DNA of 64,000 nucleotides, taken from contig JAHPZI010000018.1 of assembly GCA_019058295.1 (NCBI GenBank), positions 2,134-66,133 on the forward strand, read 5' to 3'. The position numbers were made by a program, and so were the translations under genes. Positions 8,654-51,095 of this stretch are shown here, one piece after another (position 1 is the stretch's first letter; each line of letters begins with the position of its first letter). Origin of the DNA: Promethearchaeota archaeon (GTDB lineage Archaea; Asgardarchaeota; Lokiarchaeia; Sigyniarchaeales; SOKP01). The notes below the pieces were generated by a model. It ran no database searches. It was not told where the DNA came from and saw only the letters and a list, made by a program, of their open reading frames with translations.

Positions 8654-8728
8654 CTTTTTTGAATAAAAATTATACTATTCCTAATTGTTTCATATATCAT
8701 AATATAATTAAAATTGAATTTAAATTTA

Positions 8729-24428: not shown

Positions 24429-25739
24429 ATGCCTAAAGATCCTCTTATAGAAGCTGAAAAAAAGTTAAGTAAAGCAGAGTTATTTTTTAATGCTGATCAA
24501 TTTAAAAAAGCGGGAAAATTATTCAATTCCGCAGCAGATTCATTTTTTAAACAAAAAGAATATAACTTAGCAAGGGAATGTTATAATAATGCGGCAAGTT
24601 CTTTTATTCATTTAAAAAGATACAGCCTCGCAATTGGAGCCTTAAGAAATGCAGGTGATTGTTCTTTATTTATTAACGAATACTCCGATGCGAATAGATT
24701 TTTCAAGAAAGTTATTAATTACCTACCTAATTATAAGAAAACGGCAGATCGTGATTATCTTTACATCCTATTTTCATCCTTATCGTATTTATGTTTATTT
24801 GTTGAAGGGAAACAAGACCAAGGATTAGATTTTATTAAACAAATAAAAAAAAACGTAGATAGTGGATTTTTTAAGGAATCTCCAACCATTAGTCTTGTAA
24901 AGAATTTAACAATAGCGGTCCGAGATAAAAACAAAGATTATCTTGATAAGGTAATTAAGAGTTTTAAAAAATATGATTTTCATATAGTTGAAGAAAAACT
25001 TTTAAGAGAAGTATTGGTGGCAGCTAAATCAATTCTCTCTTTAGAAATAAAATTAAGCCTTGATAAAGAACAATACACTACTAAGGATATAATAAATTTA
25101 AAGATAGATCTAAATACACAACCTTTATTAGAGATTTCTCAAAATTCTTTTTATAATTATAATATTGAGAGAATAAAAGTTACAAACATTGGGTTAAACC
25201 TTTCTGAAAATATTATTGCTCAAAAAAAACCTAATCTACCAGTAACAATAAATGCTGGTGAGAGTTATCAGTTCGAAATTCTCTTAAAGTCCCACTTTCA
25301 AGTTGATGAGCCTTTTATTGGCCCTATTTCTTTAAATTGCGAGATGGACGATAAATTCATGTTTCTGCTTCAAGAAAAAGAAGCCATAAAACCAAATATA
25401 ATATCTCCTCCTCCTTCATTAGATATTTCTATAAAAAATCTGAGACCTCCGTTAATCAGTCAAACATTTCCGTTAGAAATCTTAATCGAGAATAATAGTC
25501 AGGGAGATGCTCTCGAACTTAATATTAATATTGACTTCCCTAAAGAACTTAAAATAATGAGAGGTACAACTAAAAAGCAAGTATATTATCTTAGTTCAAA
25601 CGATAATATAAAGTGGGAAATTAATCTTAAACCTCTTGAAGCAGGGGATTATATTATAAAAATGGATATAAGTTTTAAAGACCCCGATCAAAATTTAGTT
25701 GAAGAACAAAAAACCTTTCCATTTTCAATAAAATTATAA
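24429..25739 (+). CDS. Hypothetical protein: TPR-like helical N-terminal half plus CARDB/DUF11-like beta-sandwich C-terminal half
   Basis: 436 aa. The N-terminus has repeated helical A..AG/Y..A patterns. The C-terminus has two segments resembling adhesin-type beta-sandwich repeats (VTNIGLNLSENI..., ENNSQGDALELNINIDFP...). No signal peptide. Confidence 0.35.
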   Translation: MPKDPLIEAEKKLSKAELFFNADQFKKAGKLFNSAADSFFKQKEYNLARECYNNAASSFIHLKRYSLAIGALRNAGDCSLFINEYSDANRFFKKVINYLPNYKKTADRDYLYILFSSLSYLCLFVEGKQDQGLDFIKQIKKNVDSGFFKESPTISLVKNLTIAVRDKNKDYLDKVIKSFKKYDFHIVEEKLLREVLVAAKSILSLEIKLSLDKEQYTTKDIINLKIDLNTQPLLEISQNSFYNYNIERIKVTNIGLNLSENIIAQKKPNLPVTINAGESYQFEILLKSHFQVDEPFIGPISLNCEMDDKFMFLLQEKEAIKPNIISPPPSLDISIKNLRPPLISQTFPLEILIENNSQGDALELNINIDFPKELKIMRGTTKKQVYYLSSNDNIKWEINLKPLEAGDYIIKMDISFKDPDQNLVEEQKTFPFSIKL

Positions 25740-27351: not shown

Positions 27352-28767
27352 TTATTCACTCAAAAGACCAAATCTTTTAAGACCTTCCCTCATTTCGGCT
27401 TGAAATGGACCCGGAGTTCCTTTTATGAATGCTTCAATAATATCTTGATCTTCTATCCTATTTGAGGAACGCTTTTTAGCCTTTTCCTCTGCAAGAGAAG
27501 AAATAGCCATCCTTGCCATGGATTGAAATGCCGGAGGGGATAATTGTATAAGCTCCTCAAAGACATTTGCAGTTTCAGGATCCCAGTCTAATCCCTTTTT
27601 TGTTTCTTCACTAGGCTCAGAAAGATTAAGCCCAAATTCACGACTTGTAATGATGTTTTTTAAATATTCCCTTAAGGACTGAACATAACGTGGAGATTTT
27701 TCTTGATCAAGAACCACTGCTTTTTTTGCCCATTCTTTACAATAGTTACAGTCATCGCACATTGCTACACAATCTTGCTTTTTAAAGAAGTCGATAAAGC
27801 CATCTAGTTTGGTGTTGTCAATATATAATTTAGATTTTGATTCTTTTCCAATAGTTTTAGTTATTCCTATATTAGGATCTTTCTCTTCCAATCCACCGTG
27901 AGACATCGAAAATCCTTGAATAATATCAACAAGATTACCTTCATATTTTCGTGATGAAAAAGCTTTTACAGACCTTAGGATCCAATCAGTGGTCATACGC
28001 CTTCCCGCGATTTTAAAATCAGTAATCCCAATCTCTTCATAGTGAACTAAATCTTCTGGACGAACCCAACGACATTTCAATACTTCTTCTGGTGTAGAAA
28101 ATTTAATGATACTACAATTGATTATACATGTATCTACATAATTACGTTCAAATTGTTGATATGTCTGTGAAGCATGTCCTAGGGTATTATAATGATAATA
28201 TCTAAAAGGACATTGATATAAACATCCATCAGTTAAAAGTAATACGATCTTACATTTTACTGCTTTCTTTATTTTACTGAGCGTCTTAAAATCACGATTA
28301 ATCATTATATCCGGAGTTATTTCATCCGCCCCAAGCATCTCATAAAATTTAGCTCGATTCACACTATTTACGTGTGAGATGGTAGAAACTCGGACTTTAA
28401 GCTTAGGAAACTGTTCTTTAATCAGCTGTATTAAAAAGGGGATAGTTACAATTACGCTATCGCTACCAATATCACTAATCCATTGAATATACTCGATAAG
28501 CTTGCTATGATAATGCGAATCATACTCAATATTGTTCATACAGGGAGCATTTAGCAAATAAGAAAATTTCATTTTTTTCTTATGTACTTTATCGATATAT
28601 TCTGCTATATCTCCTTTTGAAATGTCTGGTAATAAAAATGAAGGGCGCCCTCCTCCCACTATTGAATGATTAGAAACTCCATAGAGATCTGTCACAGGAT
28701 ATTTAGCCAATTCTTCTATTAAGCTTAAGTCCCAATTAGTTGCAACATAAAATTGAATTAATATCAC
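27352..28767 (-). CDS. U32-family-like (UbiU/V-type) Fe-S TIM-barrel protein with C-terminal PCP_red-like domain
   Basis: 471 aa. The core is paralogous to 28867..30903 (GGGRPSFLLP, TDGCLYQCPFRYYHY..HASQT, DFKIAGRRMTTDW resembling the U32 KIEGR block). Extra CVAMCDDCNYC motif. The last ~80 aa (LDWDPETANVFEELIQLSPPAFQ...AEEKAKK...PGPFQAEMREGLKRFGL) match the domain at the N-termini of the 32102, 34762 and 36187 ORFs. Confidence 0.6.
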   Translation of the reverse strand: MILIQFYVATNWDLSLIEELAKYPVTDLYGVSNHSIVGGGRPSFLLPDISKGDIAEYIDKVHKKKMKFSYLLNAPCMNNIEYDSHYHSKLIEYIQWISDIGSDSVIVTIPFLIQLIKEQFPKLKVRVSTISHVNSVNRAKFYEMLGADEITPDIMINRDFKTLSKIKKAVKCKIVLLLTDGCLYQCPFRYYHYNTLGHASQTYQQFERNYVDTCIINCSIIKFSTPEEVLKCRWVRPEDLVHYEEIGITDFKIAGRRMTTDWILRSVKAFSSRKYEGNLVDIIQGFSMSHGGLEEKDPNIGITKTIGKESKSKLYIDNTKLDGFIDFFKKQDCVAMCDDCNYCKEWAKKAVVLDQEKSPRYVQSLREYLKNIITSREFGLNLSEPSEETKKGLDWDPETANVFEELIQLSPPAFQSMARMAISSLAEEKAKKRSSNRIEDQDIIEAFIKGTPGPFQAEMREGLKRFGLLSE

Positions 28768-28866
28768 CTATTATTTTGGGTTATTTTTTGTTTATGTACA
28801 TTTTTTTTCTTATTTAATACTTAAATAAAAATATTTTAGATTTAGATTATTTTCTTTTTAGCTTTT

Positions 28867-30903
28867 TCATTTATTTGCTATTTCATGAGCTTTTGCGTTA
28901 AGCGGTAATAAAGGTGCACATGCCATAAGTTTATTAACATCTCCTTCTACGATATATGTTCCTGCCATCGTTGCTTGAATCGGATCTGACTCTCCCGAAT
29001 TAACCTTTTGGATGGTGGCAAAATCCGTTTTATGAATAATTTTTGGGGCGTCAGGTCCTGAATATTCACCCATCCCCCAATCCATCTTATCTTTATCAAC
29101 AAATTGCCAGTAATTCATTTCAGGTTTATCACTTATATTATATTGAAAGATTAATGGAGCAATAGGTTCTAATAAAGGCTTTAAATCCGGCAATTCATTA
29201 TAAGCTTTCATGAAACGCATAAGATATGCTTCCCATTCTTCCTTTGTATCCAATTTAATTATCACCTCCTTTAATTTTTGTTTTTCGTCTAATTTAGATT
29301 CTTTATTTACTTCTCCCACCTTTTTTACCTTCTGAGAGATGAGTTCAGTACTTAACGGGAGAGATGTTATATATTCAATCTCATCTCCCGTCATATATTG
29401 ATTTATATTAATATTCTTTTTAATTAAAAAATCGATATAATCATGTTTAAACGGTTGAGGAACTAATTCAATTATTATAGCTATCAATAAATCCTTAGTT
29501 ACCCTCTTTAATTCTTGCTTTTCTGCAGTTCTTTCTGCAGTAAATCCAATTCCCTTGGTTGCAGCCTCATGCATCTCTCTGGGAATTAGGTCCATTACTT
29601 CTTTCAAAAATTTTTTTGCATCATTATCCCAAGGAATCCCAAAATATGTTCCTATTTCGGCTGATTTAACAGGACTTTTAAGTTTTCGCTCTTCTTTGGA
29701 TAAAAACATATCTCCTGTATTTAGATATTTTAAGAGATATGCCATATATTCCTTATATGATTCTGTAATTCCTCCTTCAGGTTGAGAATAAGCTATTTTT
29801 GTTAGACTATGACAATAAAAACATGTGATTCCACAAGTTTCTACGCATCTAGCACCTCTATGTGGCATATTTTCAATGAATGTAGTCAGCTTGTTCCCAT
29901 CTAATACTGCATCAAATTCGGGCACGCTTAACAGTAGACTTTGGTTATCCGTGTCAGTTCCCATTTTAACTTGCCTAGCGGAAAATTCATTGAATTGATT
30001 ACCAGCTAAAATTAACGGATCAGATTCGAATGAATAACCATTAAAAATTTTACCGAGGTTACCATTGGAATTCTTATAACTATAAGCTTTTAATGCATTA
30101 AATAACCATTTGGTCCCATATCTCCTTCCAGATATCTTAAAATAATCAATACCAATCTCAATATATTTATCAAGATCTGCTGGTTGAATCCATTTAGACA
30201 TTACTATCTGTTCTTGATTAAAACATTTTTGATTCTGACAGGCAATAGTAGCCCAATCATTATAATATCCTTCTAAACAATCATGGGTTTGGCTTGCGTG
30301 GGAGCATTCAGTATAATGAAAAAAACGAAAAGGGCATTCATTAAGACAGCAATCGTTAGTCAATAATTCTATATCACACTTTACTGCTTTTCTAATTTCT
30401 TCTAAAAGGGGAAAATTACGATTAAGCATTATAGATAAAGTCAATACACCATCAGTACCAATTATTTCTTCCCATTCCAAAGCCCGGGTAAGAGAATTGA
30501 CTTCAGCTATTACAGAAACCTTTAATTTTAATTTAGGATGATAGGTTTTAGCAAATTGAGCGAGATAAGGATCTGTAACTGTTAAATATTCTACGCCCAA
30601 ATCATCTAACCAGTCTAATTCGTATAGTGCTTTTGTTTGTTCTTTGGAATTAAATTTATAATATCCAAGACACTCACCATTCCATAGCCATGTAAATTTG
30701 AAATTTAAATCATGAACTTTATTAATAAATTTTTCAATTTCAGCTTTATCTCGTTTAGCCATTAAAAAAAAGGGTCGCCCAGATCCAGTGAAACTCATGT
30801 CGGAAGCGCCATAAAAATCATTTATAGTTTTCATTAAATGATTATCATTTTCTATGAGAGTCAATAAATCTATTTTCCAATTGCATGCTAATGATATTCT
30901 CAA
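28867..30903 (-). CDS. U32-family-like protein fused to an internal PCP_red-like domain and a C-terminal SCP2 lipid-binding domain
   Basis: 678 aa. Residues 1-300 are U32-like (SGRPFFLM, NDCCLNECPFRFFHY..HASQT, YFKISGRRYGTKW). 4-Cys motif CVETCGITCFYC at ~353-364. Residues ~422-495 are PCP_red-like (IPWDNDAKKFLKEVMDLIPREMH...AERTAEK...PQPFKHDYIDFL). Residues ~555-670 are SCP2-like (DFATIQKVNSGESDPIQATMAGTYIVEGDVNKLMACAPLL). Confidence 0.6.
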   Translation of the reverse strand: MRISLACNWKIDLLTLIENDNHLMKTINDFYGASDMSFTGSGRPFFLMAKRDKAEIEKFINKVHDLNFKFTWLWNGECLGYYKFNSKEQTKALYELDWLDDLGVEYLTVTDPYLAQFAKTYHPKLKLKVSVIAEVNSLTRALEWEEIIGTDGVLTLSIMLNRNFPLLEEIRKAVKCDIELLTNDCCLNECPFRFFHYTECSHASQTHDCLEGYYNDWATIACQNQKCFNQEQIVMSKWIQPADLDKYIEIGIDYFKISGRRYGTKWLFNALKAYSYKNSNGNLGKIFNGYSFESDPLILAGNQFNEFSARQVKMGTDTDNQSLLLSVPEFDAVLDGNKLTTFIENMPHRGARCVETCGITCFYCHSLTKIAYSQPEGGITESYKEYMAYLLKYLNTGDMFLSKEERKLKSPVKSAEIGTYFGIPWDNDAKKFLKEVMDLIPREMHEAATKGIGFTAERTAEKQELKRVTKDLLIAIIIELVPQPFKHDYIDFLIKKNININQYMTGDEIEYITSLPLSTELISQKVKKVGEVNKESKLDEKQKLKEVIIKLDTKEEWEAYLMRFMKAYNELPDLKPLLEPIAPLIFQYNISDKPEMNYWQFVDKDKMDWGMGEYSGPDAPKIIHKTDFATIQKVNSGESDPIQATMAGTYIVEGDVNKLMACAPLLPLNAKAHEIANK

Positions 30904-30907
30904 AATT

Positions 30908-31969
30908 TCACCTCTGTATTACTCCATTTTCCATAATTTTCATTTTTTCATCTATTAATCTTAAGATTTTAGCTTTCTCTTCTGCATTTCCATTCCTTAG
31001 CTTTTTGGAAAATTCAATGCAATAATTATTTATTTCCTTTTCTGAAGGATAGTGAGAATCATAAGAGTAATTATTGCAAAATTCATTAACAATTTCAGAT
31101 TTCAACTCAAATAGAGAATTTTTAACATTATCATAAGGCCAGAATTCACCATAAGGTTGAGGAATATTGATAAATTCATTAAAGTTAACTTTTAATTCTC
31201 TTTGGGTGTAGCTTCTAATTATTTCAATTATTTTTTTAGAAGTAAATCCCCCAGTATATAGAGAAAATGTATTATATCCAAGATCTTCATACAATTTTAT
31301 ATTACTTGGTGAAATCCATCCAGCTTTCAAGAGATTTTCAGGTTTCTCTAACCTTTTTTTCCAGCAGTAGAGTAGTGGGTAATCAAACTCATCTTCAACA
31401 TCGGATAATTCTTCTTGATTTGAAAAAACAGGGGAACCTATTGTTCTATGACTTTGTAAGTTATGATGTTGATACCAATGAATACACCCCCAATTACACC
31501 CAATATTCAATGGTAAGATATAATCAAGATCTTCAGATCCTTTAAATTTGTTCTTAAGCTTAATAAAATTTTCTAATACTTTAAAATATCTCAAGATATC
31601 AGGATTTAAAATAATAATATCAGCACCAATTTCAAAAAAGATTTTCCCACGATTTAATGAAGTGACACATTGTGAATATGATAAGTAAATTTTCATCATT
31701 GGAGCATTTTCTTTAAAAAATCCAATATTATTTGGAGATGATAATAATACATCTTTGTATCCCAACTTCTTTAAATTTTGAATTAAATCTTTTGTAGCTC
31801 TATATTGTTGAAAATGAGCTTCTAAATTCCCTTGACAAGTTGAATCCAAACCTGCTATTGGAATTATTCCGTTTTCTTGAATTATTTTAGTATATTCTTC
31901 AAATTCTTTAATTGATGGGAGATTTCTTGGAAGAAATATTGAACTATTCCCAATAGGATTTTGTGGCAC
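30908..31969 (-). CDS. Divergent U32-family-like protein (third paralog); N-terminus probably extends upstream
   Basis: GTG start in the ORF track. Core blocks ILPLNIGCNWGCIHWYQHH..SH and WISPSNIKLYEDLGYNTF parallel the two neighbours. The frame stays open to 32089 and encodes FRIKFIIDGDYHKDLIALINKEKLPVSHIIVH, which aligns with the paralog N-termini. Confidence 0.5.
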   Translation of the reverse strand: MPQNPIGNSSIFLPRNLPSIKEFEEYTKIIQENGIIPIAGLDSTCQGNLEAHFQQYRATKDLIQNLKKLGYKDVLLSSPNNIGFFKENAPMMKIYLSYSQCVTSLNRGKIFFEIGADIIILNPDILRYFKVLENFIKLKNKFKGSEDLDYILPLNIGCNWGCIHWYQHHNLQSHRTIGSPVFSNQEELSDVEDEFDYPLLYCWKKRLEKPENLLKAGWISPSNIKLYEDLGYNTFSLYTGGFTSKKIIEIIRSYTQRELKVNFNEFINIPQPYGEFWPYDNVKNSLFELKSEIVNEFCNNYSYDSHYPSEKEINNYCIEFSKKLRNGNAEEKAKILRLIDEKMKIMENGVIQR

Positions 31970-32101
31970 GTGAACAATAATATGACTAACTGGTAATTTC
32001 TCTTTATTAATAAGAGCAATTAAATCCTTATGATAATCTCCATCAATTATAAATTTTATTCTAAAATCACTTTTTCTGTTTTTATCTTTTTAAAAAAAAA
32101 T

Positions 32102-33274
32102 TTAATTATAAGATTCAAGTCCCGCCTTACAACCCATTGATAAAAAGTCTACCATCGTGCCGTTATAATCGTTCTCAATCTTGTAATAAAATCCTTTTTG
32201 AGAGAATGTAGCGCCCCAAATAAATTTCTTAGAATCGCTTTGGAGAGGTGTTTTTTCTATGAAATCCCTCATTAAAGGATGAAGATGGGAAGGAACTTCT
32301 TTTGGATAATCACATGTGATCCCAAAACATAGTCGCTCGATTTTATTTGAATCCCAACTAAAAGTATAGTTAAGATGTGCTGCTTTACGACATCCCTCCA
32401 TCACCTCTTTGGACGCAGGCTCGAATCCTAGATCTTTCACCAGTGAAACGCAACTCTCATAAGAAGACTCAGCTGGTTGTTTAAGCATGAAATAAATATT
32501 AGTCGTATTATGAAGGAAATCGAATGCAAAAAGACTAAATGAGGTTAATCCATGCTTATTGAAGTAATCCTTATATGCGTTCATACTCTCTGGAATTGAT
32601 TTCATGGAATAAATTGGATCAATTGAACCGGGCACAACAAATGGCCAAATTTTTGATAACCCAGTTTCTGCATCAACATCTACTCCATATCCCATTATCT
32701 CGAATGAATTTATAGCTTCAACAATCATTTTATGGATAGGATGTCCATTTTTTTCTAGTAATCCTTCATTAATTGCAGTTGTATATGGGTCTGGATTATG
32801 AGGGATAAAAAATTCAACATATCTTACCGCTACATCTCTTTTTCCAATGGGTTTAGCGGTGGTTCTTATGGATACGGGAGCTCCTCTAAAAAACTTTTCA
32901 TAAGTATTAAAGGATTTCCAAATTGCATCCTTATTACATTTTACACCAGCGATATCGCAAATTTTAGCCATATCTTCAACCATTTTATTAAGATCGGTAT
33001 TACATTTAAAATCACTTTTCACTTTAGCCATATATCTATCATAGTCCACTCCAAGTTTAGTTAAGTCCTCAATCATTGTTGGTTGAAATGCAGGTGGCGT
33101 TACTTCAAACAACGCAACTACTAAATCAACTTCTGCGACTTCTGTTCCACTTCTTTCCATACATTTTTTTTCTGCTCCTTCGAGGAGTGCAGGTTTTACG
33201 GCGGGGCGTACCATCTCAGGTACTCCTAATAACACTTTTTCAAAAAGTTGTTTTACTTCTGGTTGCCATTCCAT
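32102..33274 (-). CDS. PCP_red-like N-terminal domain fused to an ABBA-fold aromatic prenyltransferase (NphB/CloQ/Orf2 family)-like domain
   Basis: 390 aa. Residues 1-85 are MEWQPEVKQLFEKVLLGVPEMVRPAVKP...AEKKC...TPPAFQPTMIEDLTKLGVDYDRY. The remainder shows blocks I recall from NphB: PDPYTTAINEGLL..NGHPI (cf. GDPYATVVEKGLF..TGHPV), TNIYF (cf. VNLYF), NKIERLCFGI (cf. GKIDRLCFAV) and GFYYKIENDY (cf. EEYYKLGAYY). Confidence 0.65.
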   Translation of the reverse strand: MEWQPEVKQLFEKVLLGVPEMVRPAVKPALLEGAEKKCMERSGTEVAEVDLVVALFEVTPPAFQPTMIEDLTKLGVDYDRYMAKVKSDFKCNTDLNKMVEDMAKICDIAGVKCNKDAIWKSFNTYEKFFRGAPVSIRTTAKPIGKRDVAVRYVEFFIPHNPDPYTTAINEGLLEKNGHPIHKMIVEAINSFEIMGYGVDVDAETGLSKIWPFVVPGSIDPIYSMKSIPESMNAYKDYFNKHGLTSFSLFAFDFLHNTTNIYFMLKQPAESSYESCVSLVKDLGFEPASKEVMEGCRKAAHLNYTFSWDSNKIERLCFGITCDYPKEVPSHLHPLMRDFIEKTPLQSDSKKFIWGATFSQKGFYYKIENDYNGTMVDFLSMGCKAGLESYN

Positions 33275-33313
33275 TATGTTCTACCTCTTTTTTTTTTTTA
33301 TTTTTTTTTTTAT

Positions 33314-34738
33314 TTATTGTAAATATTTAGCAAATTGAACTTGGCTCATTTCTGCAAATCCCTCTGGATTATTAAAACCAAGCCCAGGCATCATCCATCT
33401 TGGATTTGATTCCCCATACTTTCTTACTATTTGAAATAGATCTACTTCCTTGATTTTTGGGGAAATATAAAATTTAGGTTTTAAGAGATTTTCTCCTTTT
33501 TGGATAACCCCTTCTTCTTCAGCAATTTGCTGAAGAATTGTATGAGGATAAATTCTCATACCTATAAAGATGATTACATCTCCATCGCCTTGCCATAAAT
33601 TTCCTTGATAACTCTCCATAGTCTCAAGTCGATCTAAAGAAACTTGGATTGTTTCTAGAGTTTCTCCTGGACCTCCAACAATAACATGCAATAATTGCTC
33701 AATTTCCAAATCTATACACTTCTTTGACGTAAGAATCGCGTCATCTGGAGATCTCGATTTATTCATATTTTTTAACATCTCTTCTGAGAGAGATTCGATA
33801 CCAGTTGCAAAATGAACCGCACCACTCTCTTTCATGAGAGGCATTAAATCTATAAATTTTTTGTTGGGGACATAATTTACGCCCCAGTTTAGGGCTATTT
33901 TATTATTAATTATTTCTTGACAGGTATTTTTTACGTGATTATAATCCAAATTGAAAACACTGTCCACGATAAATATATTTTTAATTCCGTAATTATTTAC
34001 AATTAAATCGAGTTCTTTAGCAATATTTCCGGGGGATCTATATCGAACATTAGAATCCTCAATATACCTATAACTACAGTAAATGCATTTCATAGGACAA
34101 CCACGTTTAGTTTGAATATTACCCCAAACTGGACCTGATTTATTCATTGGATCTATAAGATAGGCATCATTTTCCAGCAATTCCCTTGTTGGTATTGGGA
34201 GATCATCTAGATTCTCAACCCGCCAAGGTGGTTTATGATGATATTTTCCTTTTTGATCTATAAAACAAATACCCTTCTCAATTGTTCTAGGATCGTCATC
34301 GTTTTCAATCTTTTTTAAAAATTCCGCAAAGACATATTCACCATCCCCAATTACCCCTATATTATGATTTAAATCTCTAAGAATTTCCTCTGAAAAAATT
34401 GAAAAACCAGCACCTCCTAACACAATTGGAATTTCCGGTTCTACAAGTTCTTTAATATATAAAATAATATTTTTTACTGGTAAGTAAAAGAATAGATTTC
34501 CCGGGTATGTTGTTGAGTCAACATTACGAATTGAAATCCCTATTAAATGAGGATTAAAATCATAAATTACTTTTGAAACATCTTTTTTATAATCATTACT
34601 AAGAGTTAAATCAAGCAATTTAACCTCATGACCTTGACTAAGAAGGTAAGCTGCAAGATATGCTTCTCCTAAGGGAGGGACCATAACATGAACAATCTCC
34701 CTACTCCCAGAGATTATTAATACACGCAATTTAATCAC
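33314..34738 (-). CDS. Class B (B12-binding-domain) radical SAM enzyme
   Basis: 474 aa. N-terminal Rossmann-like B12-type domain (PPLGEAYLAAYLLSQGHEVKLLD...LIGISI...VLGGAG...VIGDGE), then KRGCPMKCIYCSY (CxxxCxxC). Confidence 0.8.
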   Translation of the reverse strand: MIKLRVLIISGSREIVHVMVPPLGEAYLAAYLLSQGHEVKLLDLTLSNDYKKDVSKVIYDFNPHLIGISIRNVDSTTYPGNLFFYLPVKNIILYIKELVEPEIPIVLGGAGFSIFSEEILRDLNHNIGVIGDGEYVFAEFLKKIENDDDPRTIEKGICFIDQKGKYHHKPPWRVENLDDLPIPTRELLENDAYLIDPMNKSGPVWGNIQTKRGCPMKCIYCSYRYIEDSNVRYRSPGNIAKELDLIVNNYGIKNIFIVDSVFNLDYNHVKNTCQEIINNKIALNWGVNYVPNKKFIDLMPLMKESGAVHFATGIESLSEEMLKNMNKSRSPDDAILTSKKCIDLEIEQLLHVIVGGPGETLETIQVSLDRLETMESYQGNLWQGDGDVIIFIGMRIYPHTILQQIAEEEGVIQKGENLLKPKFYISPKIKEVDLFQIVRKYGESNPRWMMPGLGFNNPEGFAEMSQVQFAKYLQ

Positions 34739-34761
34739 TCTTAGTCTTTACAAATTTAATT

Positions 34762-36174
34762 TCATTCAATTAATTCGATTTCTTCTTCAATTTCTTCTTT
34801 TTGAGAAACATCAACTTCATGTTCATGATCATTTTCATGCCAGCAGAACGGAAACGATCCAAAGAAATCACCCGTGATATATTCCGCAGTTACACGACAT
34901 CCCCCACCGCAATATTTTAAATGATGGCAAGAGGCACATTTTCCTTTAATCTTCTTTCTATCACGAATATCCCTGTAGAGCTGTGAATTTAATACATCTT
35001 CAAAATCATCCTCCAATGCATTACCAAGAGTCAATGTTGTAGGATATCCCGCAGGGAATATTGTTCCATCTATACCAATTCCCATCATTGTCCTACAAGC
35101 TAAACAACCTACTCCCCATTCAATCGCTGCCAATTCTTTATCATTTTTTGGATGTTCCATAAAGGGCATCATATCATATATTTCATAAGCAGGTAATGTA
35201 CCTGCCTTACCTTTCCTTATCGTCTCAATAGCATGTTTGTATTTGAAATCATACATTTTTTTATATTCTTCTGAATTAAGACCGATTTCATCCCAAAATT
35301 CAGCAGCCCGATTTTGTTTCACTACACATCGAAAATATGGTTGTGATCCCCATTTTTCTGATAATATTTTAATCTCTTCTAATTCATCAATGTTTTGCTT
35401 CATAATTGTAATTGAAGAGCATACAAATATTCCATATTTCAAACAAAGATCTATTGCTTTCTTAGCATAATCTAAGGAATTGGGAAACCCACGAATCTCA
35501 TCATTTTTCTTAGGATCAACACTGTCAAAACTAACAAATATATGACTAATATTGTTATCTTTACACATTTTGGCGAAATCTTCATCGAATCTCACTCCAT
35601 TGGTGATAAGAGCGTGAATATAATCCTTCTCTTTACAAAATCTCATAATCTCACCAATGTCTTTTCTCAAAGTGGGCTCACCACCAAACCATATAAAGCA
35701 GGCATGTCTTCCTTGTTTTCGCAAACCTGTTTCAACATTTTCTATTATTTGACACCATTTCTCTGCTGATAATTCTGGCCGTGCTATTTGATCATCCGCA
35801 GCACAGTGAATACATTTTTGATTACATTTGTCAGTCAAATACATGGCAAAGTGTATATTTCCGGGATGAAACCCCCGCTCTAGTTTTTGCCATGAAACCT
35901 TCAATCGATCCTTGATTTCCTTCAGTTCTATATAACGTTCGACATCAATTCCTAATTTTGTTAAATCTTCTACCATTATTGATTTAAATGCTTCAGGAAT
36001 TATGTCAAAAATACCCAGAACAACATCAGCATCATTAATATAAGCAGCATTCCGATCAAGACATCTTTTTTCTGCAGCCTCTATGATTAATGGTTTCACG
36101 GAAGGACGAAATCCTTGTGGCATTTGTTCTACTATTCTACCAAATAATTTCTGTGTCTCCTTTTCCCATTCCAT
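34762..36174 (-). CDS. PCP_red-like domain + radical SAM + SPASM-domain enzyme
   Basis: 470 aa. N-terminus MEWEKETQKLFGRIVEQMPQGFRPSVKP...AEKRC...IPEAFKSIMVEDLTKLGIDVERY. TDKCNQKCIHCAA (CxxxCxxC). GGEPT. SPASM Cys blocks GVGCLACR... and GKCASCHHLKYCGGGC. Tail PFCWHENDHEHE. Confidence 0.8.
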   Translation of the reverse strand: MEWEKETQKLFGRIVEQMPQGFRPSVKPLIIEAAEKRCLDRNAAYINDADVVLGIFDIIPEAFKSIMVEDLTKLGIDVERYIELKEIKDRLKVSWQKLERGFHPGNIHFAMYLTDKCNQKCIHCAADDQIARPELSAEKWCQIIENVETGLRKQGRHACFIWFGGEPTLRKDIGEIMRFCKEKDYIHALITNGVRFDEDFAKMCKDNNISHIFVSFDSVDPKKNDEIRGFPNSLDYAKKAIDLCLKYGIFVCSSITIMKQNIDELEEIKILSEKWGSQPYFRCVVKQNRAAEFWDEIGLNSEEYKKMYDFKYKHAIETIRKGKAGTLPAYEIYDMMPFMEHPKNDKELAAIEWGVGCLACRTMMGIGIDGTIFPAGYPTTLTLGNALEDDFEDVLNSQLYRDIRDRKKIKGKCASCHHLKYCGGGCRVTAEYITGDFFGSFPFCWHENDHEHEVDVSQKEEIEEEIELIE

Positions 36175-36186
36175 AGAATTTCACCT

Positions 36187-37554
36187 TTAAGCACAATTAT
36201 CATGCTCATGGTCATCATCATGCCAACAAAACGGGAGCTCAGCTAGAAAATCACCAGTTACGGTTTCAGCATGGACCCTACAACCCCCACCACATAAGTC
36301 AAGATGATGACAAGTAGAGCATTTCCCTTTTATTTTTCGATCTCTAATTTTTTTAAACATTTCGGTTTCCATAATTTCATCCCAACTTTGCTCAAGAATG
36401 TTGCCTAAGATTAAATCAGAAGGATAATCACAAGGGAATACATCTCCATTGGTATCAATCCCAGAAATTGAGCGGCAAGCTTGGCATCCTGTGCCCCATT
36501 CGATCGCAGTCCTTTCTTCATCATTTACAGGACACTCCATAAATGGCACCATATCCCATGTATAGAATTTATTAAGCGATGAAGCTTCTCCTTTTCTGAT
36601 AGCTTCTATAGCATGTTTATATTTGAAATCATAGAATTGTCGATATTCATCCATATTTAAGCCAATTTCGTCCCAATTTAAATCGGCCGAACGTTGTTTG
36701 ATCAGGGGTCTGTAAAAGGGAGTTACTCCTCTAGAGTTAAAATATTCCCTTAATTTATCTAATTCATCAAAGTTCTCTTTTTGTGCAGTTACATTAGCAA
36801 TTGTAAAAAGTCCATATTTTGCAGCTAAATCTAACGCTTTTTCCCCTGCTTCGTATGCTTTTGGGTGCCCTCTAATTTTTGCAGCCCGTTTGGGATCTGT
36901 ACTATCATAACTAATAAAAACATGGCTCATTTTAGCATCTGCGCATATTTTCGCCAATTCATCATTAAATAAAATTCCATTGGTCGCAAGTGATTGATAA
37001 TAACCCTTCTCACCGCAATATTTAATTAAATCTTTAAGATCTTTACGAATTGTAGGCTCCCCGCCAAACCATATATAACATCCTCGACGACCACGTTTTC
37101 GTAAGCTTTGTTCAAGATCCTCAATAATTTCAATCCATGTTTCAATGGGTAATTCTGGACGTTTATCCATTACCGAAGCAGCACAATGAAGACAATTTTG
37201 ATTGCATCGGTCAGTGAGATATATAGTAAAATGATAAACCCCGGGTAAAAAGGCACCACTAATTTCATCCCATGTACGTGCATATTTTGTTCTAATTTCT
37301 GATAATTTTACATAGCGATCTGTATCAATATCTAATTTTTTTAAATCTTCGACTACTGCTGGTTGAAATGCCTCGGGTGTTATCTCAAATAGTGCAGAAA
37401 GCAAATCATCTTCACTTACAAATCCAGAATTCCTAAGTCGTGCTGTTTTTTCAGCAGCTTCTCGCAACATAGGCTTAACAGAAGCACGAAATGCCTCAGG
37501 TACTTGATCTGTGATTTTTCCAAACATTTGTTCCATTTCTATATTCCATTCCAT
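36187..37554 (-). CDS. PCP_red-like domain + radical SAM + SPASM-domain enzyme (paralog)
   Basis: 455 aa. Same architecture: TDRCNQNCLHCAA, GGEPT, GTGCQACR, GKCSTCHHLDLCGGGC, tail PFCWHDDDHEHD. Confidence 0.8.
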   Translation of the reverse strand: MEWNIEMEQMFGKITDQVPEAFRASVKPMLREAAEKTARLRNSGFVSEDDLLSALFEITPEAFQPAVVEDLKKLDIDTDRYVKLSEIRTKYARTWDEISGAFLPGVYHFTIYLTDRCNQNCLHCAASVMDKRPELPIETWIEIIEDLEQSLRKRGRRGCYIWFGGEPTIRKDLKDLIKYCGEKGYYQSLATNGILFNDELAKICADAKMSHVFISYDSTDPKRAAKIRGHPKAYEAGEKALDLAAKYGLFTIANVTAQKENFDELDKLREYFNSRGVTPFYRPLIKQRSADLNWDEIGLNMDEYRQFYDFKYKHAIEAIRKGEASSLNKFYTWDMVPFMECPVNDEERTAIEWGTGCQACRSISGIDTNGDVFPCDYPSDLILGNILEQSWDEIMETEMFKKIRDRKIKGKCSTCHHLDLCGGGCRVHAETVTGDFLAELPFCWHDDDHEHDNCA

Positions 37555-37662
37555 ATTTTTTTCACCTTATTATGATTTTTTACTCTCTTTTTTCTAAAAA
37601 TAATTCATTTTTAAGTTTAAATTGCAAATTAATTTTAAAATCATAGGTAATAACAAATTTTA

Positions 37663-38346
37663 TCATTTTTTTCCCCCCTCCCGTATAAAATGTTTATTAA
37701 AATCAGCAAAATTATTAATTTTGGGATGGCAATAATGATTGATTAAACGAAAAATCAAAAAACTTTCAAAATCAGAATGATAACAGAATACTTTGAGATT
37801 ATTGTAGCGATTATTTAATATATACTTGGTTTTTCTATGCAAAATTCTGTTTTGAATAAAATTAATTCTATAAATTTTTCTTCTCAAATTGTCATTAAAA
37901 TTATGAATTCTCTCATTTAAGCTATAATCTCTTTTATTTCGATCTCCTTTATTCTTATTATCGAGATATTCTATCGATTCATCATTTAGTCCAAGAGAAC
38001 CCAAACTTATATAAAAAAATATTTTTGTATCTTCATTTAAGAATGCATTTTTAACATAATGATAAAAAGCCGTATCAATATAACAAATGATATTATAAAT
38101 TATGATGATGTCAATCAAATGACCGAGGCTAAACTGGATTGTGTGAGATTCGTGAGGCAAAAATCCTAATATATTGATGTAAGGTAAAATAGGAATGAAA
38201 ATTGACTTGCCAGAGGTAATATATTCAGTTAATAAAGAAGAAAAAACTGGAACATCTCTTAAAAACATGAAAATGAACAAGCTCGTGAGATAAGAAAAAA
38301 TAACGCTAAAGATCAAGACTATTTTCAAAATTTTAAGTTTATGCAC
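37663..38346 (-). CDS. Hypothetical membrane protein
   Basis: 227 aa, GTG start preceded by GAGAGAGGA. About 3 N-terminal TM segments, then a basic, Asn/Arg-rich C-terminal half. No family recognised. Confidence 0.35.
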   Translation of the reverse strand: MHKLKILKIVLIFSVIFSYLTSLFIFMFLRDVPVFSSLLTEYITSGKSIFIPILPYINILGFLPHESHTIQFSLGHLIDIIIIYNIICYIDTAFYHYVKNAFLNEDTKIFFYISLGSLGLNDESIEYLDNKNKGDRNKRDYSLNERIHNFNDNLRRKIYRINFIQNRILHRKTKYILNNRYNNLKVFCYHSDFESFLIFRLINHYCHPKINNFADFNKHFIREGGKK

Positions 38347-38474
38347 GTATTTAATCCTCTCTCTATCATTAATAATTGATTATAATCTTAGAGTTATTGA
38401 ATAATGAAAATACTGAAGCATTAGTTATAAATATAACTGTGATTAAATAATCAGATAATGCAATAATTAAATCC

Positions 38475-39965
38475 TTATTTATCTCTCTTTTTAGGATATT
38501 TCGAACTAGATGTTAGAAGCATAGGTGCAGTGCTTAAAAATAATAGCATGTTTGCATAACGAATAAAACCTCCAGAAAAATGTTTCTTATCATAGTTAAT
38601 TACATTATAAAAATAGGATGGTTTAGTTCGCTTGAAAATGTTAACAATCTGCGGAAAAGAATTAAATTTTAGTTTTATTTTAAATTTTTCAGGAGATTCA
38701 TGGGCAGGAGAACCAGGGAAAATATGATAAGGTTCACTCATAATTGTAATTGGTTTGAAATTGGAATTACCATATTTTAAAAGGCATTTAGTCGCAAAAT
38801 GAAAATCCTTAAGAATATCAAACCGATTTTGGAAAGGAAGACCGATAGTTAACCATATCCGTAATAATATTTGAGATAAATTTGCATTTTTTATTAAATC
38901 ATTAATTTGACTTTCTGGAAATTTAAATGTTGGATCACAAGTTTTAGCTATTTTTTGCTGAACTTTAGCTGATAATGTTCGAGGAGAAATACTGATTGAT
39001 GAATATCTACGAGCAAAAGTCTTCTCAAAGATTCTCCACATTTCTTTAGGAAAGGGTAGCCGCCATATCTCTAAATCTCCACTAATATCAATTTTTTCCT
39101 TTTGAATCAGCCCAAATAATTTTTTCCAATATTTTAAATTAGCAGGATATGTACCATGTCCGAAAAAGACACTTGGAACTTTATAATTGTCGAGAATATT
39201 GTGGAGATCTTCTATTATTTTTTCTGGACTTCTGAGAACGACCTCATTTCGACCCGTTAGTTTTTGCTGAGCTCTTTGACCTCCTCCACAAAAAGGACAA
39301 TTAAATGGACAGCCCCTTCCAATTGGAAGATTGAGAGAGATTCCCATAATCTTTCTGCTATACTCAAGATATTGTTTTGCATTATTTAGAAGTGATACAT
39401 TAATAAAATTCAAATCATCCAATGTTTTTGCTGTATAGGAAAGAGAATTAACTTTTATGTGTTTAGAGGTATCTCGATAAGATAAATTGGGAACAGAATC
39501 TAATGATTGATTTTTATTAATCTTTTGAACATATTTTAAAAATGGAACTTCCCCTTCGCCTCTAATTATACCGTCAATTTCTTTATAGTATTTTAATAGT
39601 TCACTATGGTAATATGAAGCACTAAAACCTCCAAGAATTACATTAGCATGGGGATTTACTTTTTTTACGATTCTAGCAACTTCAATAGCACCATTTGCAT
39701 TATGTATCCAATGTAAATCTATTCCACATACATCAAAATTAATATTTTTAAGAAAGTCGGCTAATGACCAATTACGATTTAGATATTGCTCTAATGGATA
39801 ATTTATAATTTTAACTCCAAAACCCCCTTTCTCAAGCAAATCGGCAATGCTAAAAACACCCATTGGAATGAATAAATATTCCCCTCGTTTAAATTTGGAT
39901 CTTTTATTATTAATAGGTTTTACTACTCTAGGTGGATGGATGAGTAAAACATCGTAGCTTTTCAA
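38475..39965 (-). CDS. Class B (B12-binding-domain) radical SAM enzyme
   Basis: 496 aa. B12-type N-terminal domain (PMGVFSIADLLEKGGFGVKIIN...CGIDLHW...ILGGFS...IRGEGE), then GRGCPFNCPFCGG (CxxxCxxC). Confidence 0.75.
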   Translation of the reverse strand: MKSYDVLLIHPPRVVKPINNKRSKFKRGEYLFIPMGVFSIADLLEKGGFGVKIINYPLEQYLNRNWSLADFLKNINFDVCGIDLHWIHNANGAIEVARIVKKVNPHANVILGGFSASYYHSELLKYYKEIDGIIRGEGEVPFLKYVQKINKNQSLDSVPNLSYRDTSKHIKVNSLSYTAKTLDDLNFINVSLLNNAKQYLEYSRKIMGISLNLPIGRGCPFNCPFCGGGQRAQQKLTGRNEVVLRSPEKIIEDLHNILDNYKVPSVFFGHGTYPANLKYWKKLFGLIQKEKIDISGDLEIWRLPFPKEMWRIFEKTFARRYSSISISPRTLSAKVQQKIAKTCDPTFKFPESQINDLIKNANLSQILLRIWLTIGLPFQNRFDILKDFHFATKCLLKYGNSNFKPITIMSEPYHIFPGSPAHESPEKFKIKLKFNSFPQIVNIFKRTKPSYFYNVINYDKKHFSGGFIRYANMLLFLSTAPMLLTSSSKYPKKRDK

Positions 39966-40152: not shown

Positions 40153-41136
40153 TTGAATAAAATGAGTGATATGGCAAATATTTTAGAATATATGAATTTA
40201 GCAGATTTTTTATTTATTGTTGTATTTCCATCAGTTTTACTTTTACTACTTTTAATTATCTTTATAAGTGGATTATTTAAAGAAAAACCAAAGCATGAGC
40301 TTATGACATTGGATGAATTCATGATGGATTGGCTTAAAGATCACGGACAAGCTCACAAATTGGAAGAACAGTTTGCGAGAATGAAAAAAGATCCAGCAGG
40401 GAAAATTTATATGCCATTAACATATCATGGCGGAATAATTGCTATAAAATGTGGTTTAACTCCAAATAAGGTATCTTATATAAATCTAATTTTATCCTTT
40501 TTCATATTTTGGGCTGTAATAATGATTAGTAAAGGTCATACTCTAAATCTATTTTCTAAACAACCGTACTTTGGCTCTTGGTTTATTCCTCTTGCCTTTT
40601 TAGCCTTATTTACAGGAATTATTGATGGGATTGATGGAGCGATAGCTAGGATATTGGATATAAAGTCTAAAAGTGGTGCGTGGTTAGATAATGTGATTGA
40701 CAGAATTAGTGATATATTATTACTTGTTTGTTTCGTTCCAACTAGTTTTATGGTTGTTTCGATATTAGGATTTAAGTTTGATTTTACATGGATAGTTTGG
40801 ACGAATATTTTCCTAATTTTTCTCTATGAATACATGAGAGCGAGACATGAAGGGTTAGGTTTACATGAAACCAAACCAACTATAGGAGAAAGAATAACTA
40901 GATTTTTTGTAATCTTTATATTCTTTTTAATTTACGGTATTTCGAGCTTCTTTGTATTATTAACAAATTGGATTAATCCCAATGCTACGAAGATATGGAC
41001 TGATTCGCACATTGGCACAATTACTTGGAATATGCTAATTTATCAGATAACTCTATTTTTGATTATGATCTTCTCATTGATTAAATTAGGGAGTTATAGT
41101 TTTAAAAACCTGAAGAAATTGGATAGTGGAGATTAA
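40153..41136 (+). CDS. CDP-alcohol phosphatidyltransferase-family membrane enzyme
   Basis: Complete signature D-x2-DG-x2-AR-x8-G-x3-D-x3-D in IIDGIDGAIARILDIKSKSGAWLDNVIDRISD. Multiple TM segments. The true start may be the ATG at 40162 rather than the TTG at 40153. Confidence 0.85.
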   Translation: MNKMSDMANILEYMNLADFLFIVVFPSVLLLLLLIIFISGLFKEKPKHELMTLDEFMMDWLKDHGQAHKLEEQFARMKKDPAGKIYMPLTYHGGIIAIKCGLTPNKVSYINLILSFFIFWAVIMISKGHTLNLFSKQPYFGSWFIPLAFLALFTGIIDGIDGAIARILDIKSKSGAWLDNVIDRISDILLLVCFVPTSFMVVSILGFKFDFTWIVWTNIFLIFLYEYMRARHEGLGLHETKPTIGERITRFFVIFIFFLIYGISSFFVLLTNWINPNATKIWTDSHIGTITWNMLIYQITLFLIMIFSLIKLGSYSFKNLKKLDSGD

Positions 41137-41239
41137 AAAATAAAAAAAGAGGTTATGAAATATCAATTTCAAAGGTTTTATATACTTAGTTGTACTGGTA
41201 ATCTTTTTTGTTCTATTACATATTTATTTTCCCCCTTAT

Positions 41240-42511: not shown

Positions 42512-42644
42512 CTTTGTATAAACACTAATCAATTTTATTTATATGAAATTAAGGTCTCTCTTTAACTATTATCTCTCTATTATATTTTAATAAGATTAAA
42601 AATAAAAAAATAACTACTAAGGTTAATTAAGGAGTATTTTTTTA

Positions 42645-44090: not shown

Positions 44091-44118
44091 TGATAAATTA
44101 AAAATGTGAGATATAAAT

Positions 44119-45624: not shown

Positions 45625-45644
45625 TTAGATGGGGGATCTTTATT

Positions 45645-50324: not shown

Positions 50325-51095
50325 ATGAACACATTTAATCAGAAAAAGAAGCCAAGAATTTCTATTATCGTACCCACCTACAATGAGGAGAATCATTTAA
50401 AAGAAACATTAATCGCTATTAAAAAGCAAAGATGTGATATTTCTTATGAAATCCTTGTCGCTGATGGAAAAAGCACCGATAAAACCGTTTCTATTGCTGA
50501 AAATTATGCAAAAGTATTTATTTCACCACAAAAAGGTAAGGCCTTTCAATTAAACTATGTTGCACCAAAAACTTCTGGTGATTTACTTATATTTTTAGAT
50601 GCCGATACATTAATAGAACCATTTTTTTTACAGAAAATTCACAAAATTTTCAAAAGAGATAAAAATCTTTTTGCCTGTAGTGCTAGAGTTAAATATTATG
50701 ATGGAAAATGCCTAACCTTTAATTTGGGTTCTCTGACTTTTACTATAACAAGTTATTTTTTTCTTAATATTAATGCGCACTTATATTATTTTTTCAAAAC
50801 GTTATTTGGCTATCCTGAACTTTCAGGCACTAATATAATTGTTAGAAGAGACATATTTTTTAAAGCTGGTGGATTTAAGCAACCACCAGAGTCATTAGGA
50901 ATCGACAAGGTTTTCTCAGATTCCTTATTATATTTGAAAAGAAAACTAAAAAGGGGCAAAATTAAAACCTTAAATTTCATTTCAGTATTTACAAGTGGAA
51001 GACATTTAACCATGCGTCGTAGTTTTAAACGTATTAGCCAATACCATTCTAAAAAAGAGATATATTATGAATTAGCAAAAGAAATAAATAAATGA
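50325..51095 (+). CDS. Family-2 glycosyltransferase (short, non-processive type)
   Basis: 256 aa. ISIIVPTYNEENHL and FLDADT (DxD) motifs. Confidence 0.7.
   Translation: MNTFNQKKKPRISIIVPTYNEENHLKETLIAIKKQRCDISYEILVADGKSTDKTVSIAENYAKVFISPQKGKAFQLNYVAPKTSGDLLIFLDADTLIEPFFLQKIHKIFKRDKNLFACSARVKYYDGKCLTFNLGSLTFTITSYFFLNINAHLYYFFKTLFGYPELSGTNIIVRRDIFFKAGGFKQPPESLGIDKVFSDSLLYLKRKLKRGKIKTLNFISVFTSGRHLTMRRSFKRISQYHSKKEIYYELAKEINK

Follow-up and report, generated by a model that had tools for sequence, protein, structure and literature searches.

A tandem trio of U32-family paralogs, one fused to an SCP2 domain, in a conserved Asgard archaeal operon with an aromatic prenyltransferase and radical-SAM enzymes

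We analysed a stretch of 64,000 nucleotides (nt) from a Promethearchaeota archaeon of the Lokiarchaeia (assembly GCA_019058295.1, contig JAHPZI010000018.1, positions 2,134 to 66,133 of the forward strand), hereafter called the window, in which three consecutive tandem genes on the minus strand encode proteins related to the U32 family. The G+C content of the window is ~31%, and its named homologs point to an Asgard archaeon of the Loki/Promethearchaeota kind. The product of the first, U32a (27352-28767, 471 amino acids [aa]), combines a U32 TIM barrel with a DUF2621-like domain at residues ~390-471, and that of the second, U32b (28867-30903, 678 aa), combines a U32 barrel with a DUF2621-like domain (~29389-29646) and a C-terminal SCP2 domain (~28870-29256). 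U32c (30908-32059, 383 aa, probable ATA start), separated from U32b by 4 nt, is a degenerate paralog that keeps the four-Cys and His block. An initial annotation, made from the letters alone, had placed the trio at 27352-32092 and quoted motifs from each open reading frame (ORF). All of the quoted motifs are present in the translations: TDGCLYQCPFRYYHY..HASQT, KIAGRRMT and CVAMCDDCNYC in the 471-aa U32a; NDCCLNECPFRFFHY..HASQT, KISGRRYG and CVETCGITCFYC in the 678-aa U32b; and NIGCNWGCIHWYQHH..SH in U32c.

The three ORFs are thus real, but comparison with orthologs moves the start of the third to 32059. In the ORF list, the first canonical start of U32c is a GTG at 31969, which gives 353 aa. 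Because the 30 codons upstream of this GTG are conserved among orthologs, and because IKFIIDG at the ATA codon 32057-32059 aligns with the ortholog start MKFIIDG, U32c most likely begins at the ATA at 32059, at neither 32092 nor the GTG at 31969. The codon would be either a rare ATA start or the result of an assembly base error or single-nucleotide polymorphism.

Pairwise comparisons by BLASTP gave 34% identity over 489 aa between U32a and U32b (E 1e-80) and 27% identity over 230 aa between U32c and U32a (E 2e-22), with an E-value of 8e-6 for U32c and U32b. In a profile-profile comparison of the U32c and U32a families (hhalign), the probability was 99.95% (E 1.5e-37, 363 columns). The similarity lies far above chance, and by these alignments the three genes are true paralogs. 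Similarity to U32 proteins, which had been claimed for the whole trio, was found directly for two of its members: against Pfam Peptidase_U32 (PF01136; gathering score, 22.4 bits), U32a scored 45 bits (E 1e-11) and U32b 35.3 bits (E 9.6e-9), and the family was matched by 31 of 31 U32b orthologs. U32c had no direct Pfam match and is tied to U32 through the hhalign alignment to the U32a family; a precomputed PF01136 match was present in 3 of 81 U32c orthologs. The sole solved sequence relative was Mk0906 (PDB 5d88), with an E-value of 4e-5 from the single sequence and 2e-7 from the family profile.

An AlphaFold (AF2) model of U32b, built on 31 orthologs, had a mean predicted local distance difference test score (pLDDT) of 67, with values mostly of 70-90 in the barrel and ~90 in the SCP2 tail. 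Eight strands alternate with helices in the model, with C78 just past strand 3, C186 and C190 just past strand 7, and FKISGRR on strand 8. The best Foldseek match in the PDB was 5d88 (E 5.9e-7, template modelling [TM] score 0.66 on the target), followed by other TIM barrels. The TIM-barrel-like core attributed to the three proteins was recovered, for U32b, as a match of its model to the U32 fold of 5d88.

In one alignment, four Cys and two His were common to all three paralogs and to distant relatives: a Cys after strand 3, a CX3C pair after strand 7, two His (in YYH and G/S-H-A-S) and a downstream Cys. These correspond to C76, C182-X3-C186, H192, H198 and C218 in U32a, to C78, C186-X3-C190, H196, H202 and C222 in U32b, and, in window-ORF numbering, to C45, C158-X3-C162, H168/H169, H174 and C202 in U32c. 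The Cys and His are invariant in 111 of 111 U32a, 58 of 58 U32b and 72 of 72 U32c orthologs, so the cysteines that had been called conserved within the trio are also conserved in the orthologs of each paralog. U32a and U32b have two further invariant elements, F-K-I-x-G-R-R (FKIAGRR and FKISGRR, respectively) and a C-terminal CX3-4CX2CX2C motif, which reads C333-X3-C337-X2-C340-X2-C343 in U32a and C353-X3-C357-X3-C361-X2-C364 in U32b. U32c has neither K-I-x-G-R, reading FSLYTGG instead, nor the C-terminal 4-Cys motif, in keeping with the earlier assignment of a KIEGR-like block and an extra Cys motif to two of the three ORFs. The canonical U32 four-Cys motif, CX6CX15CX3/4C (PMC6747719), was not found in the paralogs, and their four invariant Cys are spaced otherwise.

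When the U32a core was searched against 1.84 billion representative proteins, it matched 1840 clusters (50% identity) at E <=1e-3, including 518 at E <=1e-30, with bacterial members from Lachnospiraceae and Desulfobacterales. The subfamily pattern is C…CX3C…H…H…C followed by a C-terminal CX3-4CX2CX2C. Signature residues were kept in 120-142 of 142 representatives obtained by clustering at 50% identity, and the barrel motif residues K252 and R256 in 140 and 139 of them. By this signature, the paralogs belong to a large, previously uncharacterised U32 subfamily. The suggestion that the non-classical Cys pattern marks a separate subfamily is thus strengthened, as the spacing differs from the canonical one and the signature is kept across the 142 representatives.

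The tail of U32b scored 21.0 bits against Pfam SCP2 (PF02036), marginally below the cut-off of 21.3, and 24 of 31 U32b orthologs had an SCP2 match, with a best E-value of 1e-7. The second Foldseek match of the U32b model was UbiJ-SCP2 (6h6p; E 5.1e-5, TM 0.73), and several SCP2 structures matched with TM scores of 0.53-0.73. The high pLDDT of the tail, the 6h6p match and the ortholog matches agree with its first identification as SCP2. Stand-alone SCP2 genes are found in Heimdall, Odin and Hermod operons, SCP2 is fused to a SPASM enzyme in Thor, and one locus (L025) encodes a 999-aa SPASM-prenyltransferase-SCP2 protein; stand-alone and SPASM-fused copies score 25.1-25.7 bits in Pfam. Because its tail shares 73-89% identity with the SCP2 proteins that stand alone in other Asgard operons, U32b is, on this comparison, a duplicate of U32a that took up the formerly stand-alone SCP2 gene of the operon. 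The alternative SCP2 fusions among lineages argue that the operon enzymes all act on an SCP2-bound molecule.

The trio lies at the 3' end of an operon of nine minus-strand genes (27352-39965, ~12.6 kb) separated by gaps of 4-128 nt. The first gene (38475-39965) encodes a B12-binding radical S-adenosylmethionine (radical-SAM) enzyme that resembles the Ta0216 family (TIGR04190, 248 bits against a cut-off of 500). It is followed by a gene for a small, poorly conserved protein of 227 aa (37663-38346) with a hydrophobic N-terminus and no Pfam match, whose operon position is kept, and by genes for two paralogous radical-SAM/SPASM enzymes, each with an N-terminal DUF2621-like domain: paralog 2 (36187-37554) and an enzyme that is AhbD/NirJ-like below cut-off (34762-36174). 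A second B12-binding radical-SAM enzyme (33314-34738), a candidate C-methyltransferase, matched two NCBIfam models below their cut-offs, TIGR04072 ('lipid biosynthesis B12/rSAM'; 261 bits against 360) and BzaD (195 against 450). Directly upstream of U32c, 32102-33274 encodes an ABBA aromatic prenyltransferase with an N-terminal DUF2621-like domain, which matched PTase_Orf2 (PF11468) with an E-value of 1.6e-53 over 282 of 287 model positions. Its nearest PDB entries were 5ynt, AmbP3, AmbP1, EpzP and NphB (E 1e-37 to 1e-26). The proposal of a hydrophobic substrate, first drawn from the SCP2 fusion, now has real support in the SCP2 fold and in an Asgard-conserved operon that contains an aromatic prenyltransferase and four radical-SAM enzymes.

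A helical domain of ~85 aa is common to U32a, U32b, both SPASM enzymes and the prenyltransferase, and W, P, E, P and F are invariant across its five copies in the window (33005-33274, 35905-36174, 37285-37554, 29389-29646 and 27355-27600, all on the minus strand). The copies match Pfam DUF2621 below threshold (E 1e-5 to 9e-3), and PCP_red matches were insignificant (E 0.04-0.06). A model of the domain showed five helices at a pLDDT of 88, and Foldseek found nothing better than E 0.15 for it in the PDB, with BchB not among the matches. Some U32a orthologs have two tandem copies, and the domain also occurs in bacterial U32a-like proteins. Our guess is that it serves as a docking module.

Two other readings of these genes were considered and rejected. 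The first treats the shared domain as a leader-peptide recognition element, beside SPASM, B12 radical-SAM and prenyltransferase genes, in a pathway for a ribosomally synthesised and post-translationally modified peptide; it was rejected because the gaps in the operon leave no space for a precursor gene and because SCP2 and the shikimate links described below suit a small lipid better. The second takes the ABBA enzyme as the GGGP synthase of MK-D1, noted as 'missing' for this cultured Lokiarchaeon (PMC11316595), and was rejected as the principal explanation on the grounds of the enzyme's membership in an aromatic family and the spread of the operon across Asgard phyla.

The gene order of the operon recurs in 12 loci from Asgard metagenome-assembled genomes, and across Asgard phyla U32a and SCP2 are found together with the prenyltransferase, two SPASM enzymes and a B12 radical-SAM enzyme. 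Of 958 detectable U32a homologs, the best 120 are orthologs, and they represent the Loki, Thor, Odin, Hermod, Heimdall, Hel and Hod lineages. U32b and U32c have ~60-80 orthologs each, from a narrower set of lineages than U32a, and the U32c orthologs (81 matches) are annotated 'hypothetical' and, where a source is named, labelled as Asgard or metagenome. By this distribution, U32a is the ancestral copy and U32b and U32c are duplicates restricted to some lineages. In Heimdall the order is U32a, SPASM, SPASM, B12 radical-SAM, prenyltransferase and stand-alone SCP2; in Odin it is prenyltransferase, SCP2 and U32a, with ADH synthase directly after U32a. Across the flanks of 13 loci, the only recurrent extras were a LuxE-like gene and small GTPases, which were uninformative. 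In a Thor locus (L008, 16287-18850) the operon gains a third DUF2621-SPASM enzyme and two further small SCP2 genes, together with a FAD_binding_4 protein and a Fer4/CCG protein, a GlcD/GlcF-like pair that could be an electron acceptor for oxidative steps.

Several relatives of U32a are linked to chorismate and prephenate, the product of chorismate mutase. A 924-aa protein (P0410, at 3179-5953 of L022) joins three parts, a chorismate-binding domain similar to TrpE/PabB, a chorismate mutase of type II and a U32a-like domain, and a gene for a TrpG/PabA-type amidotransferase lies directly upstream and overlaps its start. Judged by its domains, this protein is a rare 'Rosetta stone' that physically joins a U32 protein to prephenate synthesis. 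In L025, an archaeal variant of the operon directly abuts a complete operon leading from shikimate to chorismate mutase, with genes for Asd, aspartate kinase, ADH synthase, DHQ synthase II, dehydroquinase, shikimate dehydrogenase, shikimate kinase, EPSP synthase, chorismate synthase and, last, chorismate mutase.

On bacterial contigs, U32a-like genes also occur within type II polyketide synthase (PKS) clusters of two types; both encode KS-alpha, KS-beta and ACP, and one of them encodes a cyclase as well. One of these members is labelled Lachnospiraceae and another 'bacterium'. Subfamily members in PKS clusters of anaerobic bacteria (L023, 10001-11449; L024, 4734-6182; L026, 9001-10161) stand beside HemN-like and B12 radical-SAM genes. 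The U32 proteins of the PKS clusters are candidate O2-independent hydroxylases of aromatic polyketides. A further locus (L017, 1-21170) contains two U32a-like genes, one SPASM, about nine B12 radical-SAM, two GT2, a PMT_2 and a polysaccharide deacetylase gene, a set reminiscent of HpnI, HpnJ and HpnK, the genes for hopanoid side chains.

Among characterised U32 proteins, UbiU/V contain 4Fe-4S clusters and hydroxylate the ubiquinone ring with prephenate as oxygen donor, and RlhA and TrhP hydroxylate pyrimidine C5 (PMC6747719, PMC10990095, PMC5727448). RlhA and TrhP also need prephenate (PMC10990095, PMC5727448). All known U32-dependent hydroxylations are on aromatic or heteroaromatic ring carbons (PMC10990095), and, according to a paper and a review from 2024, UbiU/V, RlhA and TrhP, all bacterial, are the only U32 'oxidases' with an assigned role (PMC10990095, PMC11574389).

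The comparison of the trio to UbiU, UbiV and UbiT made in the initial annotation stands as an analogy but not as orthology. In both systems several U32 paralogs are encoded next to one another, together with an SCP2 module that binds lipids, and the presence of K-I-x-G-R in U32b and not in U32c mirrors that of KIEGR in UbiU and not in E. coli UbiV. Each protein has four conserved Cys, the first far upstream as in UbiV, whose cluster ligands are C39, C180, C193 and C197; UbiV C39 aligned with U32a C76 in a weak hhalign alignment. The context of the trio implies a prenylated aromatic substrate, as in the Ubi system, and there are genomic links to prephenate, with one subfamily member fused to chorismate mutase and one version of the operon beside a chorismate mutase gene. 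The SCP2-U32 fusion also has a parallel in the natural UbiT-UbiU fusion of Zymomonas (PMC6747719).

The two systems differ in their Cys motifs, CX3C with His in the trio and CX6CX15-16C in UbiU/V, and in the extra C-terminal Cys4 motif and DUF2621-like domain of the trio. In place of UbiA, UbiD/X, UbiE and UbiG, none of which was found in the operon or the window, the trio has a soluble ABBA prenyltransferase and radical-SAM enzymes as partners. An NCBIfam scan gave no UbiU or UbiV match for the three U32 proteins. Against single E. coli sequences, hhalign gave a weak match to UbiU (E 0.016) that was collinear and aligned KIAGRR with KIEGRQ, and an insignificant one to UbiV (E 0.35-0.53). No relatives of UbiU were found in the PDB copy searched, and the SCP2 tail had no similarity to UbiT (BLASTP E 4.2). 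The trio is archaeal and non-orthologous; UbiU/V/T are from Proteobacteria. As an analogy, U32c looks like a UbiV-type partner of U32b because of the 4-nt spacing and the loss of catalytic-looking motifs.

Other known systems share parts of this arrangement. Mk0906, from Methanopyrus kandleri, has the TIM barrel and the S-H-A-(S/T) block and is the best PDB match in both sequence and fold, but 5d88 lacks the CX3C pair in the alignment, and its solved chain of 254 aa has no aligned region for the Cys4 motif, helical domain or SCP2. TrhP and RlhA belong to the same U32 superfamily, are known to depend on Fe-S and conserved Cys, and hydroxylate aromatic ring carbons without O2; they differ in their RNA substrates and C-terminal Peptidase_U32_C and DUF3656 domains. 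In the Ubi metabolon centred on UbiJ and UbiK, SCP2 holds hydrophobic intermediates for several tailoring enzymes (PMC6747719), and UbiJ-SCP2 is the best SCP2 fold match of the U32b tail. Here, in contrast, assembly would proceed through the helical domain on five enzymes, and the SCP2 partner varies by lineage. The soluble PTase_Orf2-fold aromatic prenyltransferase is shared with the NphB, CloQ, EpzP and AmbP/FamD pathways. The Asgard system differs from these bacterial ABBA pathways in its archaeal host, the putative N-terminal docking domain, the SPASM and SCP2 fusion in one lineage, and tailoring enzymes that are all of O2-independent types.

Taken together, these comparisons lead us to favour, with moderate confidence, a function of the trio as O2-independent and probably prephenate-dependent hydroxylases that act on an SCP2-held prenylated aromatic; both the hydroxylase activity and the formation of a heteromer are inferred. 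In the proposed mechanism, each paralog would coordinate a [4Fe-4S] cluster on the catalytic side of its barrel through the upstream Cys, the CX3C pair and the downstream Cys, with the two His nearby, and the second Cys4 site of U32a and U32b may hold a second cluster or a metal that relays electrons. The U32 proteins would hydroxylate an aromatic ring without O2, with the oxygen most likely coming from prephenate, as in UbiU/V. 18O-shikimate labelling is an established method (PMC10990095). The substrate may be a shikimate-derived aromatic that is prenylated by the adjoining ABBA prenyltransferase, tailored further by the two SPASM radical-SAM enzymes (perhaps through decarboxylation or loss of a side chain) and C-methylated by the B12 radical-SAM enzymes. 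The SCP2 pocket, covalently attached to U32b in the present lineage, would hold the greasy intermediate, and U32b and U32c would act as a heterodimer. By docking, the DUF2621-like domain could gather the five enzymes that carry it into a single soluble complex around the intermediate bound by SCP2.

Several observations weigh against this proposal. Fe-S cluster binding by the paralogs is an extrapolation, since the canonical U32 Cys motif is absent, and the Cys loops of the U32b model are poor, with pLDDT <50 at residues 184-224 and 347-364. The 64-kb window contained neither a chorismate mutase gene nor shikimate genes. Two lineages (loci L014 and L015) do not have U32b or U32c and have a 132-aa SCP2 gene instead; the trio is therefore not essential to the pathway. 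The Helarchaeal U32a is solitary and does not lie in such an operon. In the published account of the cultured Lokiarchaeon, phytane and biphytane lipids are the only ones reported, and quinone data are not given (PMC11316595). Finally, the operon is surrounded by lipid head-group, glycosyl-transfer and many B12 radical-SAM genes, a setting that also fits the tailoring of membrane lipids.

A more specific product is possible, although we put it forward only tentatively and consider it rather doubtful: Asgard archaea may make a novel isoprenoid redox lipid, similar to a quinone or quinol, in which every step is free of O2. The ABBA enzyme would prenylate a chorismate- or prephenate-derived ring, the SPASM enzymes would trim its side chain, the B12 radical-SAM enzymes would C-methylate it and the prephenate-dependent U32 hydroxylases would add oxygens, with the steps taking place on an SCP2-bound intermediate in a soluble metabolon docked through the DUF2621-like domain. 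In Loki, Thor and Hod lineages, U32b and U32c could add extra hydroxyls.

The main rival explanation, which we consider unlikely, is that the compounds tailored by the operon are ordinary membrane lipids of archaea (archaeol, glycerol dialkyl glycerol tetraether chains or head groups), with the U32 proteins oxidising or hydroxylating an isoprenoid or head-group carbon and SCP2 shuttling the lipid. SCP2 is a general lipid binder, the best NCBIfam model of one B12 radical-SAM enzyme is the 'lipid biosynthesis' family, and genes for a CDP-alcohol phosphatidyltransferase, a GT2 enzyme and three B12 radical-SAM enzymes adjoin the operon and are syntenic in several Asgard loci. The distant relative at L017 likewise has GT2, PMT_2 and polysaccharide deacetylase genes around it, along with some nine B12 radical-SAM genes. 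However, the prenyltransferase is clearly an aromatic ABBA enzyme whose closest structures prenylate indoles, phenazines and naphthalenes, and the hydroxylations known for U32 proteins are all on aromatic or heteroaromatic rings (PMC10990095). The chorismate mutase fusion and the adjacency to shikimate genes also indicate aromatic chemistry, and the SPASM enzymes reach 62 bits against a Tes cut-off of 450.

It is improbable that the operon instead modifies a tetrapyrrole-type cofactor, with SPASM enzymes acting on side chains, oxidation by BchE-like and U32 enzymes, addition of a prenyl tail and binding of the macrocycle by the PCP_red/DUF2621-like domain. This would account for AhbD, NirJ and AhbC being the best NCBIfam matches of both SPASM enzymes, BchE being that of the neighbouring B12 radical-SAM enzymes, and the faint PCP_red matches of the shared domain. 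The NCBIfam matches are, however, far under their cut-offs (~139 bits against 500), and the PCP_red matches are insignificant, with no PDB match of the domain model, BchB included. No tetrapyrrole genes were present at any locus examined, and known tetrapyrrole prenylation relies on UbiA-type rather than ABBA enzymes.

Still less probable is that the trio are RNA hydroxylases of the TrhP/RlhA kind, forming 5-hydroxyuridine (ho5U) or 5-hydroxycytidine (ho5C), and lie beside a biosynthetic operon by chance. U32 proteins have two known functions, one being the hydroxylation of RNA, and TrhP was the sole NCBIfam model matched by U32a (E 2.8e-5), but with a score of only 23 bits where the cut-off is 534, and the Pfam scan found no Peptidase_U32_C or DUF3656 domain. 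The fusion to SCP2 and to a putative operon-specific docking domain, the strictly conserved operon position and a spacing of 4-99 nt that fits co-transcription do not suggest a chance neighbour.

Two further readings are hardly credible. True UbiU/UbiV/UbiT orthologs that make ubiquinone anaerobically would have the same cast, two or three U32 proteins and SCP2, including the Zymomonas UbiT-UbiU fusion (PMC6747719), but are effectively refuted by the missing UbiU/UbiV NCBIfam matches, the E-values (hhalign, 0.016 for UbiU and 0.5 for UbiV; 4.2 for UbiT), the different Cys motif, the lack of UbiA, UbiD/X, UbiE and UbiG in the operon and the origin of the paralogs by duplication inside Asgard archaea. 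Peptidases or collagenases, as implied by the database name 'U32 family peptidase' and by source annotations as 'collagenase-like PrtC family protease', carry a historical name for a family whose better-studied members are Fe-S proteins tied to O2-independent hydroxylation (PMC6747719, PMC11574389), and would not explain invariant Cys/His clusters, an SCP2 fusion and a biosynthetic operon.

Upstream of the operon, a divergent block on the plus strand (40153-47084) contains three B12 radical-SAM genes as well as genes for a CDP-alcohol phosphatidyltransferase and a GT2 glycosyltransferase. It often accompanies the operon in other Asgard loci, being collinear with or adjacent to it in L005, L006, L014, L002 and L010, and its functional link to the operon is uncertain. 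B12-binding radical-SAM genes are unusually many in the 64-kb window, with seven clear and one weak; the stretches concerned are 40153-47084 (+), 50325-51095 (+), 51872-53350 (-), 55010-56464 (-) and 58956-60797 (+). The phosphatidyltransferase, which resembles archaetidylinositol phosphate synthase, and the GT2 genes adjoin these B12 radical-SAM genes, and this block may be a lipid head-group modification island.

Elsewhere in the window, a gene for a 775-aa sulfatase lies beside one for a radical-SAM/SPASM protein (402 aa in the ORF list) with a terminal SEC-C zinc motif (6326-9937, minus strand). The pair is probably an anaerobic sulfatase and its maturase, and is flanked by three EamA transporter genes. 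A 436-aa TPR protein (24429-25739, plus strand) matched the Pfam eukaryotic SNAP family at 31 bits against a cut-off of 25 and could be an Asgard protein of the 'eukaryotic signature' type. Two long ORFs, 888-3143 (-, 751 aa) and 60907-62754 (+, 615 aa), had no Pfam match, and a tRNA scan of the window found none.

A full-text literature search found no description of the operon, of the U32 subfamily or of an Asgard quinone. What is new is a distinct U32 subfamily within an undescribed pathway conserved across Asgard phyla; U32 enzymes as a kind are already known. With 1840 clusters, the subfamily has a predicted cluster-binding signature unlike the canonical one and a second Cys4 site, and it is repeatedly tied to aromatic biosynthesis and chorismate mutase. 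These ties suggest that prephenate-dependent hydroxylation likely reaches into the metabolism of archaea and into anaerobic natural products, type II polyketides among them. Since the operon is conserved from Heimdall to Loki, Asgard archaea, the mostly fermentative and syntrophic relatives of eukaryotes, of which cultured strains exist, probably make an unrecognised prenylated aromatic lipid. If this lipid is redox-active, models of how Asgard membrane bioenergetics works, and of the metabolic background to eukaryogenesis, would have to be revised.

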